From contig JAHQJS010000005.1 in NCBI GenBank assembly GCA_019057385.1, forward strand, positions 224,799-288,798: a stretch of 64,000 bases of DNA, written 5' to 3'. The stretch's first letter is position 1. Every line of letters starts with the position of its first letter. The notes below the pieces were generated by a model that saw only the letters and a program-made list of their open reading frames with translations, was not told the DNA's origin and searched no databases. Below, one piece after another: positions 6,081 to 57,262 of the stretch. The stretch is from Candidatus Borrarchaeum weybense (GTDB lineage Archaea; Asgardarchaeota; Sifarchaeia; Borrarchaeales; Borrarchaeaceae). The position numbers were made by a program, and so were the translations under genes.

Positions 6081-6517
6081 CGGCGAGAAGTCCCCTTCCG
6101 AAAGGAGGGGGATGAAAGCCGATGGCTTTTTATAGTTTCGTGGAAACCTATACGTGGTACCGCGAGTGTACCCGTAATGCCCGACTGGGTGGAGGTATAT
6201 CCTCCTGTAAGCGACCAGTCAGCAGGTGACAGGGCTAAACATGAGGAAGCCCGTGCATGAGGTCTTATCCAGCGTGGCAAGAGAGTCCCCTTCTGGTGTG
6301 CAGTTTGCTAACCTGCCAGCCAGGCAGGTAACAGATTAATAGCCTTCTGCAAGCAAATAATCAAGGGGCAGGATAAGGGTGAGCAGCGTGTGCAACCTGG
6401 TAAGCTTCCGTAAGCCCATAACTGTAGTGAAGGTGGCGAAGCGTCGCCCCCCGTGAGGGAGCGAGAACTACAATGGAAAGCTGGAAGCCCCATCCAAAAG
6501 GGTGGGGAGGATGTCAC
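6081..6517 (+). mobile_element. non-autonomous IS200/IS605 derivative with structured non-coding cargo
   Basis: Left-end hairpin cggcgagaagtcccc...ggggatgaaagccg and right end gaagccccatcc...ggtggggaggatgtcac parallel the ends of the tnpB element; GC-rich island; no credible ORF; CTAT immediately 5'. Confidence 0.75.
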
Positions 6518-23775: not shown

Positions 23776-23882
23776 TGGCGGGTCCGGCGAGATTTGAACT
23801 CGCGATCGCCCAGCAACATCGATATGATGGTTGCAATCAGGCTTAGGAGGCCTGTGCCCTATCCTGGCTAGGCCACGGACCC
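23776..23882 (-). tRNA. tRNA-Arg(CCU) with one intron at about 45/46 (23807-23835)
   Basis: GGGTCCG acceptor, A20, CAGGC-CTCCTAA-GCCTG anticodon arm, G73, encoded CCA; 29-nt hairpin insert in the variable region. Confidence 0.9.
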
Positions 23883-52280: not shown

Positions 52281-53317
52281 CTATTGTTTAAAGGATTTCC
52301 ACTCTGGATACGTTGAGCGTGGCATTATGACTTTCTTTGTATTAGCAACTATGCCATGATCTATTTCAAGAATCTCTTTACTTAACATAGTAGCCTCAGC
52401 AATACCAATTGCTTCGCCTTTCTGAGTAAATATGGCTACAGTACCACCTGGTTTGATATTATCGCTTAACTTTAATACACCAGGCGCCGTTAATTTTGCC
52501 CCATGGCATATTGCATCGACTGCAGAGTCTCGAATCACCAGCTTTGGAAGATGAACTAAGCCTTCTTCCACAGGTTGTATTACCTTACGCAGATACTGTT
52601 CCTTTCCATCCTCTTTCCAATAGTGATATGCATCGTTTACTTCAAGAAGTGTAACAAGAGTGTCATCCTCCTTGAATGGACCTGCACGCGTTCTCCTTAG
52701 TTCTAACATATGAGCCCCCGTGCCCAACACTTCGCCAATATCATGTACCAGCTTCCTCATATAGAATCCCGCTTCGCAACCGACTCGAATGAGCACGTCT
52801 TTTCCTAAAATTTCTAATACATTTGTATAATATACTCTACGGATTCTTAAGCGTCTTTTTACAGAAGATCTTAGTGGAGGACGCTGATAAAGTGGGCCTG
52901 TAAACTCTTGACATATTGTCTCTATTTTTTCGTGATCTACTTCTTTGTGAAGACGCATTATGCAGATGTATTCTTTCCCAGCAGGAAGCCAACTTTGTAC
53001 AACCTTTGTTGCACGTTCTAAAGCAACTGGAAGAATTCCTGTTACGCCGGGATTACTCTATTCTGAAGATTAACTCACCTTCAGAACTCTAGAGTCCCTC
53101 CATGTCCTGCTTTCTTTAATTCCAGAATTCTTTTGATCCATGCTACAACTTCATGACTTGTTGGTCCAGCAGGTTTATCTAAATTGATTATTCCAAAGGC
53201 TAAATGCTTTTCAATAGGACGTTCAGCAGGCTTATAACCCCATTCAGGATTTGTCGCCTCCTGTGCTTTAGTGATTAATTCTCCCCGCACGTCACTAGGT
53301 AGGCGGCCTCTTTCCAT
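52281..53317 (-). CDS. cbf5: H/ACA RNA-guided pseudouridine synthase Cbf5, two exons (53317-53089, 53053-52281), 333 aa spliced
   Basis: LDKP.GPTSHEV, GHGGTL-D-PGVTG restored by splicing, YQRPP.RSSVKR, PUA domain. Confidence 0.95.
53054..53088 (-). other. 35-nt BHB intron in cbf5 mRNA
   Basis: GGGA-CUCU-AG^A-GUUCUGAAG...CUUCAGAAU-AGAG-UA^A-UCCC; splits the catalytic Asp codon. Confidence 0.93.
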
Positions 53318-55813: not shown

Positions 55814-57262
55814 TCATCCAAATCCTAAGAAATCTCTGAGGGATGGATGTATATCTGCTAATCGCTCTTTAGCTATGATCTCATAATATTGTGATATTAT
55901 CATAGTAGCTAACAGAATCCCCATGCCTGTACCAAGTGCTCCAAGATAATCTGCAAAAGCGGCTATAAGCGCAATCGCCACACCACCCCATATAGAGGCG
56001 GGACCAATGTAACGCTTCAGTAATTTTTCAAGTATCTTTGGACTACTTCTAAATCCAGGAACCATCATTCCTGCATCTAAAAGTTGCCTTGCCACATCTT
56101 TTGGAGCCATTCCTCCAACTTCAATCCATGTTACTGAGAAAATGGTGCACGCAACAATTAATACTAATAGATAAACTACAGCCCTCAAGGGATCCGCTGT
56201 CACCACTTCAATGCCTCGTGGAGGCGTCAAATAGTAGACAAGACCTCCTACAGGTTTCAATCCTGCATCTGTCGACTCGAAAGTACCAATTAAATTGTAC
56301 CAGAAGTTAGAGTTGCTCTTATTGTAACGTGACCATAATAACTGCCCAATAAGGTAAACATTAGCGAAGAAAGCCGCTGCAAGAATCACAGGAATATTCG
56401 AAGCGTAAAAGAATTTGATAGGATATCTTCCTTTAAAACCACGATATTTGGCATACGTAAGTGGTACTTCTATGCGAATAGCCTGCATGTAAATAACGAT
56501 AACAAACACAACTGCTGTGGCAATGAATCCTGTCATGTCTGGAAGGCTGCCTGGACGATCAAATGCGGTCATGGCATCTCCTTCAGCAATATATTGTCCA
56601 AGAGCTATGAGCGCACCATGATATTTACCGTCATCTGAAATTACAAGTCCTAAAGAGTTCCATGCTACCTGTTCGGCTACACCAGCAGCAATAAAGAGAG
56701 AAATTCCTGAGCCAAGACCCCATCCTTTCTGCAATAATTCGTCCATTAGCATGAGGACTATACCGGCAGCTATAAGCTGAATGAATATAAGAATTGTGAT
56801 ATCGATGGATAAGGTTCCAAACGCACCTCCGATAAGATATGCTAACGCCTGAAACACTGTCATTATTACACTTAACACTTTTTGAGCAGCAGTAAATAGA
56901 GAACGGTCTTCTGGATCCGAGAAGTCTACGTCAATGATCTGACTGCCAGATAATAACTGCATAACCAGCCCTGCAGTTACTATTGGGCCGATCCCCAACT
57001 CCATGAGTGTTCCTCTAGAACTCGCAAGAATGGTTCGCATCCAGAATTCCGCGAGCTATCTAAGTGATAGTTCTCTAAACGGGTCTGGACCGATATTCTT
57101 TGGAAGTCCATATAGAGGAATTTGTGCCATAACTAAATATAAGAGAAGACAAAGTACCGTATAAACTGCCTTTTCTTTGAAAGACACATCTCGATCTGGT
57201 TTCCCGACCTCTGGTATAACTCTCGATAATGGAGAGAAAATGCGTAAAAATGTACCTGTCAA
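55814..57262 (-). CDS. secY: preprotein translocase subunit SecY/Sec61alpha, two exons (57262-57077, 57046-55814), 472 aa spliced
   Basis: IPEV.KP.R.VSFKEK, IPLYG; splicing gives [53 protein letters not shown]. Confidence 0.93.
57047..57076 (-). other. 30-nt relaxed-BHB intron in secY mRNA containing an in-frame UAG
   Basis: CCAGA-C-CCGU-UU^A-GAG-AA-CUAUC-acuua-GAUAG-CUC-GCGG-AA^U-UCUGG. Confidence 0.82.

Follow-up and report, generated by a model that had tools for sequence, protein, structure and literature searches.

In the archaeon Candidatus Borrarchaeum weybense, the gene for the translocon protein SecY appears as two reading frames separated by a stop codon, and this locus raises the question of how an intact SecY could be made from an essential, interrupted gene. 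The gene lies in a 64,000-nucleotide (nt) stretch of DNA (C5:224799-288798), hereafter the window, which belongs to a metagenome-assembled genome (G000) of 4.18 Mb in 8 contigs with an estimated contamination of 7%; positions refer to the window unless a contig is named. A preliminary description of this stretch, made from its sequence, had proposed that a tRNA-type bulge-helix-bulge (BHB) intron interrupts secY. The proposal was borne out by the RNA structure, the exact presence and absence of the insert among relatives, the pattern of constraint, the splicing toolkit of the genome, and the neighboring cbf5 gene as a control. We consider it likely that the 30 nt at 57047-57076 represent an archaeal BHB intron in the secY pre-mRNA, which would be cut by the splicing endonuclease EndA, joined by RtcB, and spliced constitutively, probably as a passenger. 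The parts of the gene are as follows.

57077..57262, minus strand: secY exon 1, from the TTG start to the Phe62 codon; first transmembrane helix (TM1) and first 24 plug-domain positions
57047..57076, minus strand: 30-nt BHB intron, with the predicted 5′ splice site between 57077 and 57076 and the predicted 3′ splice site between 57047 and 57046
57039..57090, minus strand: whole BHB element, comprising an exonic outer helix, an unpaired C, a 4-bp helix, two 3-nt bulges, and an intronic hairpin
57056..57058, minus strand: in-frame UAG in the GAUAG arm of the intron hairpin, with which the unspliced frame ends after 68 codons
55814..57046, minus strand: secY exon 2, the remaining plug and the SecY core domain, with a TGA stop

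A 30-nt insert splits the plug motif of SecY

Translation of the minus strand at 55814-57262 yielded an open reading frame (ORF) of 68 amino acids (57056-57262) and another of 408 amino acids (55814-57040), which share one frame and have a single TAG between them, as the preliminary description had stated. The start codon is a TTG at 57262, preceded by a Shine-Dalgarno-like GGTGA motif, and the secY orthologues use the same TTG start. Ten extra codons, including the TAG, interrupt the Sec61/SecY plug motif midway and are placed between two Phe codons. Positions 1-24 of the 35-position Pfam Plug_translocon profile correspond to residues 40-63 at the first ORF's end, and in a read-through protein of G000 the match stops at position 24 as well (34 bits), whereas the profile is unbroken from 1 to 35 in an intron-less orthologue (57 bits). 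Exon 2 is matched by positions 1-306 of the Pfam SecY profile at 233 bits.

The genus comprises five species-level genomes, each of which has a single secY match. The insert is present in three of them (G000, G001, and G002) and absent from the other two (G003 and G004). Precisely these 30 nt are missing from G003, G004, and the class relative G005, all of which have DPFFWMR at the site, and alignment to such intron-less relatives fixes the boundaries of the insert without freedom. Removal of the 30 nt from the G000 gene leaves a gapless plug motif in a 472-amino-acid product that is collinear with the orthologues, and the exon junction predicted after splicing is ...GACCCGTTT joined to TTCTGGATG... 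(...CCGUUU followed directly by UUCUGG...). Further public contigs fall into the same two classes, five carrying the 30-nt intron (L173, L174, L176, L177, and L178) and four lacking it (L092, L172, which reads DPFYWMR, L175, and L179). When the predicted introns are removed, all 14 secY genes are open and encode 472-476 amino acids. In a listing of the approximately 150 best secY matches across 400 Asgard genomes, an internal TAG is found solely in the three Borrarchaeum genomes.

The interruption also affects how such genes are retrieved and annotated. Public gene calls from intron-bearing strains (P0003, P0004, and P0006-P0008) give a SecY of 396-408 amino acids from which the plug domain is missing, an annotation artifact that is due to the intron. 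A metagenome scan with the N-terminal 137 amino acids returned one close relative, the intron-less L092, and otherwise distant SecY proteins; the intron-bearing alleles were probably out-ranked because their match is split, and they were retrieved through the protein database and contig look-ups.

Interruptions of other kinds were seen elsewhere. SecY of many other Asgard families (e.g., G011, G031, and G040) gave 2-3 separate matches within one 500-585-codon frame, which points to long translated insertions in those families, not introns, and secY of G187 contains one in-frame TGA.

The insert folds as a BHB element whose cut sites coincide with the ends of the indel

The minimum-free-energy (MFE) fold of the 60 nt at 57036-57095 (minus strand) is a BHB, and the centroid structure agrees with it; both are identical to the helices, bulges, and extra unpaired C drawn in the preliminary description. 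The outer helix consists of 7 exonic base pairs (GUCCAGA/UCUGGAU), the central helix of 4 base pairs (CCGU/GCGG) between the 3-nt bulges UUA and AAU on opposite strands, and the inner hairpin (GAG..CUAUC/GAUAG.CUC) closes a 5-nt loop. The fold has an energy of -19.9 kcal/mol (z = -2.9), and 1 of 200 shuffled sequences was as stable. Two 3-nt bulges on opposite strands with a 4-bp helix between them are what characterizes an EndA substrate, and the secY layout (h-H-bulge-h′ on the 5′ strand and h′-H-bulge-h on the 3′ strand) is that of tRNA introns at 37/38. The inner helix GAG/CUC abuts the 5′ bulge, and the outer helix is shifted by the unpaired C. Cutting between the second and third bulge nucleotides is a rule confirmed for cbf5 (PMC2738675), and applied to both bulges of secY it excises 57076..57047, i.e., exactly the 30 nt that are absent from the intron-less orthologues.

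To gauge chance expectation, the relaxed BHB motif was counted genome-wide, and 99,675 occurrences were found at 8.36 million strand positions for 135 lengths, which amounts to a chance of about 9e-5 per fixed position and length. Since the intron-less orthologues fix both position and length beforehand, it is not by chance that the cut sites of the motif and the ends of the indel coincide. No other copy of the intron was found in the genome with up to 7 mismatches allowed, and a repeat or mobile-element origin was rejected on account of this single copy.

Structured positions are frozen in intron-bearing strains

Eight intron-bearing sequences, five of them distinct, were compared for constraint. 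None of the 25 non-loop intron positions varies, nor does any of the 7 third-codon positions inside the exonic helices, and elsewhere in the same stretch 89 of 155 third-codon positions vary versus 0/32 structured positions (Fisher p = 6e-11). The UAG codon is invariant in every intron copy. Variation is confined to the hairpin loop, where 4/5 positions differ (ACUUA, AUUUA, AUUCA, and GCCUA), and an independent sediment contig from 2015 carries the intron with the loop GCUUA. Between the secY genes of G000 and G001, 49% of four-fold sites and 10% of residues are different, with 0/25 differences in the intron stems and bulges, and an identical consensus fold was obtained from all intron-bearing copies.

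The exonic flanks behave in the same manner. The codons GGT CCA GAC CCG TTT, before the insertion point, and TTC, after it, are frozen in intron-bearing strains, and in intron-less strains the same codons drift synonymously, e.g., to GGA CCG GAT in G004, the secY of which is among the closest to that of G000. This pattern is as predicted by selection on RNA structure and not by a translated 10-residue loop, for the codon changes in the insert are limited to Leu/Phe/Pro, all of them in the RNA loop, while its degenerate sites elsewhere are fixed.

A second, frame-shifting insert and the scattered distribution of both

An extra insert of 28 nt, which shifts the reading frame, is present in exon 1 after codon 22 in G002 and in contigs from Logan, JGI, and ENA.

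L003:2152-2179, minus strand: 28-nt BHB-like insert, lying upstream of the 30-nt intron; shared by L174, L176, and L177, absent from G000

At this insert, the RNA can form a CGGG/CCUG helix with an AAA bulge on each side, and cuts placed after the second A in both bulges take out exactly 28 nt and leave the sequence of the orthologues. The motif is relaxed, its outer and central helices being separated by one unpaired nucleotide, and in its MFE fold an additional U-A pair shortens the 3′ bulge to two nucleotides. Two variants of the insert differ solely at positions that are unpaired in the G002 fold, and both changes add hairpin pairs in the variant. Because the insert shifts the frame of an essential single-copy gene, readthrough of a stop codon cannot rescue it. 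The persistence of this insert is the strongest indirect argument for splicing of secY mRNA in the genus.

In the gene tree of the secY exons, both introns are scattered among very close strains: G004 and L092, which have neither, are sister with 99% support to L173, L174, and L177, which have one or two. From this tree, several precise losses, gains, or allelic exchanges of the introns appear to have taken place; the strain tree is that of a single gene, and its deep nodes are weak.

The genome encodes a splicing toolkit and carries introns in cbf5 and TBP

Two EndA paralogues (tRNA_int_endo, 99 and 77 bits) are encoded in the genome, one with the Tyr/His/Lys catalytic motifs and the other without the His, and on this reading of the motifs they may represent a catalytic alpha and a structural-type beta subunit. 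Asgard EndA has been described as an (alpha-beta)2 enzyme with a loop conferring broad specificity, and (alpha-beta)2 and epsilon2 enzymes are reportedly the only ones to cut relaxed motifs of this kind (PMC5829648). There are two RtcB genes as well (582 and 286 bits).

The gene cbf5, approximately 4 kb from secY, served as a control.

53054-53088, minus strand: cbf5 intron, a strict 35-nt hBHBh′ motif reproduced by the MFE fold (z = -4.3)

It splits the codon of the catalytic Asp between letters one and two (between GTL and DP), with DKCLD encoded upstream of it and TruB_N positions 17-149, TruB_C_2, and PUA downstream. The crenarchaeal cbf5 intron, for which splicing is supported by cDNA, resides at that Asp-codon site (PMC2738675). 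The secY intron is in a different gene and is not homologous to the cbf5 intron, of which the genome has its own, separate copy.

Outside the window, the TBP frame (C6 ~542,600-543,400, plus strand) is broken three times, twice at the equivalent position of the two TBP repeats, between GKLVCT and G. One of the inserts, of 37 nt (543062-543098), folds as a stable BHB and was recovered by the genome scan.

A de novo census was taken of BHB motifs that would rescue an ORF anywhere in the genome, against a decoy of mirrored geometry. The census did not discriminate between the two, with 991 true versus 994 decoy matches of similar helix lengths, and 59 versus 50 remained after an MFE fold was required; for this reason no claim is made on the number of mRNA introns. 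The most stable short candidates of true geometry were those in cbf5, secY, an unassigned stretch at 6305-6337 of the window, and TBP, and none of the decoys of up to 40 nt reached -17 kcal/mol.

Proposed splicing pathway

Based on the above-described features, we propose that in the secY transcript the exon flanks would pair with each other (GUCCAGA/UCUGGAU) and exon with intron (CCGU/GCGG), whereby the two 3-nt bulges would be displayed four base pairs apart. A heteromeric (alpha-beta)2 splicing endonuclease would then cut after the second nucleotide of each bulge, and RtcB would join the exons and probably circularize the 30-mer. Only the spliced mRNA would encode the 472-amino-acid SecY with its intact plug helix (DPFFWMR).

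Most likely, BHB introns have spread lineage-wide from tRNA and rRNA into mRNA, and the secY intron is a tolerated passenger of this spread whose shape is kept by selection against unspliceable variants, not as a dedicated switch. The intron comes and goes, and other genes carry like introns, which makes a passenger likelier than a dedicated switch; since a secY that cannot be spliced would be lethal, the shape would be retained.

Four points weigh against this pathway. First, the sole matching metatranscriptome contig covers 56463-56706 and falls short of 57047-57076; the RNA search gave 20 runs with a match, one of them a clear RNA library, and neither this library nor two "metatranscriptomic WGS" runs gave a contig across the intron. 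Second, the motif is relaxed, as the unpaired C opposite the 3′ bulge produces a 1x3 internal loop and not a clean bulge, and cleavage of this geometry by EndA is a prediction. Third, the insert is a multiple of three with a single UAG, in a genome that encodes PylS and PylD. Fourth, all paired positions are invariant among the intron-bearing copies, and there are no compensatory base changes. Of the two things that the preliminary description had proposed to look for in an alignment of relatives, exact presence and absence was obtained and covariation was not; with invariant stems, the BHB structure is backed by constraint instead.

Alternative explanations

The alternative that survives best supposes a spliced intron that also serves as a regulatory valve on translocon supply, the pre-mRNA giving no more than a short TM1 peptide before EndA and RtcB have acted, and the preliminary description had compared it with HAC1 and XBP1. 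Splicing of HAC1 and XBP1 is non-spliceosomal, in that the cuts at RNA stem-loops are the work of a protein endonuclease and, in metazoans, the exons are ligated by RtcB. The endonuclease IRE1 recognizes two 7-nt loops, and splicing is gated by stress and changes the C terminus. The proposed secY splicing is likewise required for the full protein, but the secY RNA forms a BHB and not twin 7-nt loops, and there is no sign of gating. The idea of a valve draws on the invariant in-frame stop six codons past the 5′ splice site, on the conservation of the whole element in sequence beyond its pairing, and on the BHB intron in the 5′ untranslated region of Haloferax HVO_1309, which affects the expression of that gene (PMC7714728). 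It is at odds with the finding that near-identical secY exons occur with the intron (L173 and L174) and without it (G004 and L092), which indicates that the intron is dispensable, and the like introns in cbf5 and TBP point to a general spread. Moreover, the best match of the genome to the IRE1-type RNase (PF06479) scored 21.5 bits, below the 23.3-bit cut-off, and neither a sensor nor a condition is known. The suggested switch found no support in these data, and we regard a regulatory role as unlikely.

Translation of the 30 nt, with the UAG read as pyrrolysine or otherwise read through, would yield a SecY of 482 amino acids with a 10-residue insertion in the plug. Such a reading is invited by the length of the insert (30 = 3 x 10) and by UAG as its sole stop, and by the presence of PylS (281 bits, C7:142596-143312) and PylD (244 bits, C7:134124-134924), both above the curated cut-offs; Sifarchaeia are reported to encode the full pyrrolysine system (PMC9499178). 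On the other hand, the synonymous sites of the insert codons are fixed where divergence at nearby four-fold sites reaches 49%, so that conservation around the UAG follows RNA pairing and not codon degeneracy, the insert breaks the Plug_translocon profile, and the companion 28-nt insert of the relatives shifts the frame. A translated insert at the plug site, which the preliminary description had named as evidence against an intron, was found in none of the approximately 376 Asgard genomes with a match and in none of the best 120 database proteins. In addition, TAG terminates 23% of the open frames of at least 250 codons in the genome. Taken together, these data render translation of the insert very improbable. 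A further claim, namely, that unspliced mRNA gives only a 68-amino-acid peptide, is weakened by the pyrrolysine genes: the UAG ends that frame, as TAG ends many long frames here, but with PylS and PylD present it is not necessarily an absolute stop, and the word "only" is uncertain.

Translational bypassing, or ribosome hopping, is known from gene 60 of phage T4, and it is not known to occur in archaea. In secY, the peptidyl-tRNA-Phe would leave UUU, skip the stop-containing hairpin, and land on the downstream UUC. The Phe codons on both sides of a stable, stop-bearing hairpin are in keeping with this scheme, but a landing on UUC would produce DPF-WMR, which has one residue fewer than DPFFWMR or DPFYWMR of all orthologues, the element fits EndA substrate geometry nucleotide for nucleotide, and the neighboring cbf5 has a classical spliced-type intron. 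Bypassing is therefore extremely improbable.

That the insert is an assembly error or the mark of a pseudogenized secY, a thought suggested by the metagenomic source and its estimated contamination, has next to no likelihood, since it recurs in three species-level genomes, in independent JGI, ENA, NCBI, and Logan assemblies, and in the 2015 sediment contig, secY has a single match per genome, and the exons are under purifying selection (10% amino-acid versus 49% four-fold-site divergence).

Relation to known archaeal introns

A BHB intron in pre-mRNA is established for cbf5 of Crenarchaeota (Watanabe 2002; Yoshinari 2006; Yokobori 2009, PMC2738675), and in the searchable literature cbf5 is the only coding sequence in archaea for which splicing of an intron by the endonuclease is confirmed (PMC7714728, PMC2738675). 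The preliminary description had known of no such intron in secY, and none was found in that literature. Crenarchaeal cbf5 introns measure 33-39 nt in several species, are mostly relaxed BHB motifs, and go with a hetero-oligomeric EndA (PMC2738675). The secY intron resembles them as a short intron in a coding sequence with a relaxed motif and the same cut rule; some of the cbf5 introns are also multiples of three, and they too show patchy gain and loss among close relatives. Unlike them, it resides in a membrane-translocon gene of the Asgard phylum, shows no sequence similarity to them, and is accompanied in relatives by a second intron in the same gene. Further, splicing is supported by cDNA for cbf5 and is deduced from sequence for secY.

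Non-canonical multiple tRNA introns have been described in the Asgard archaea Atabeyarchaeia and Freyarchaeia (PMC11291895), and a census that includes Borrarchaeaceae (bioRxiv 10.64898/2026.10.13.758758) reported approximately 2.1 intervening sequences per tRNA gene for this family. These introns share lineage, size range, BHB geometry, and presumed enzymes with the secY intron. Both studies deal with tRNA genes only, and mRNA introns are unmentioned in them; in secY, by contrast, it is an mRNA that would be cut, and codons make up the exon helices. When the literature was searched for BHB or mRNA introns in Asgard archaea, Borrarchaeum, or Sifarchaeum, only work on tRNA and rRNA came up. Like the proposed intron of secY, that of Haloferax volcanii HVO_1309 is an EndA substrate within an mRNA, and it likely affects the expression of HVO_1309, but it lies in the untranslated leader of a euryarchaeal gene, where it breaks no reading frame, and is handled by a homodimeric-type EndA (PMC7714728). 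The secY intron would hence combine a known mechanism with a new gene and a new phylum, as part of a broader and apparently undescribed spread.

Implications

If the proposed splicing holds true, the introns of secY, TBP, and cbf5 would document a spread of protein-mediated splicing to mRNAs of core housekeeping genes, in a lineage with ties to the ancestor of eukaryotes. Intron-bearing genes are split or truncated by gene callers, and completeness estimates and metabolic inferences for such genomes are biased as a consequence. The series of presence and absence among near-identical strains offers a natural test system for intron gain and precise intron loss.

A more far-reaching scheme would have a regime of mRNA splicing by the tRNA endonuclease in Borrarchaeum-type archaea, in which secY (two introns), TBP (three), and cbf5 all depend on EndA and RtcB. 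Unspliced secY would then give the TM1 mini-peptide or, with pyrrolysyl-tRNA, an isoform with an extended plug, and translocon output would be tied to RNA processing and pyrrolysine status. We hold this scheme to be decidedly unlikely.

Surroundings of secY and further candidates

The ribosomal protein genes S5, L30, and L15 lie upstream of secY. Elsewhere in the window, a GC-rich island at ~6100-6500 (minus strand; 53% versus a genome average of 37%) contains ORFs that are not protein-like and, at 6305-6337, a strict 33-nt BHB candidate of -22.4 kcal/mol. Rfam gave no match on this island, where an intron may conceal the gene of a structured RNA. At 23779-23882 (minus strand), Rfam matched a 104-nt tRNA, and ARAGORN reported no tRNA in the 64-kb window; this disagreement is consistent with tRNA genes that are heavily interrupted by introns. 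On another contig, at C7:592073-592101 (minus strand), removal of a strict 29-nt BHB candidate restores GAAGRDFHNFN in a 459-codon frame.

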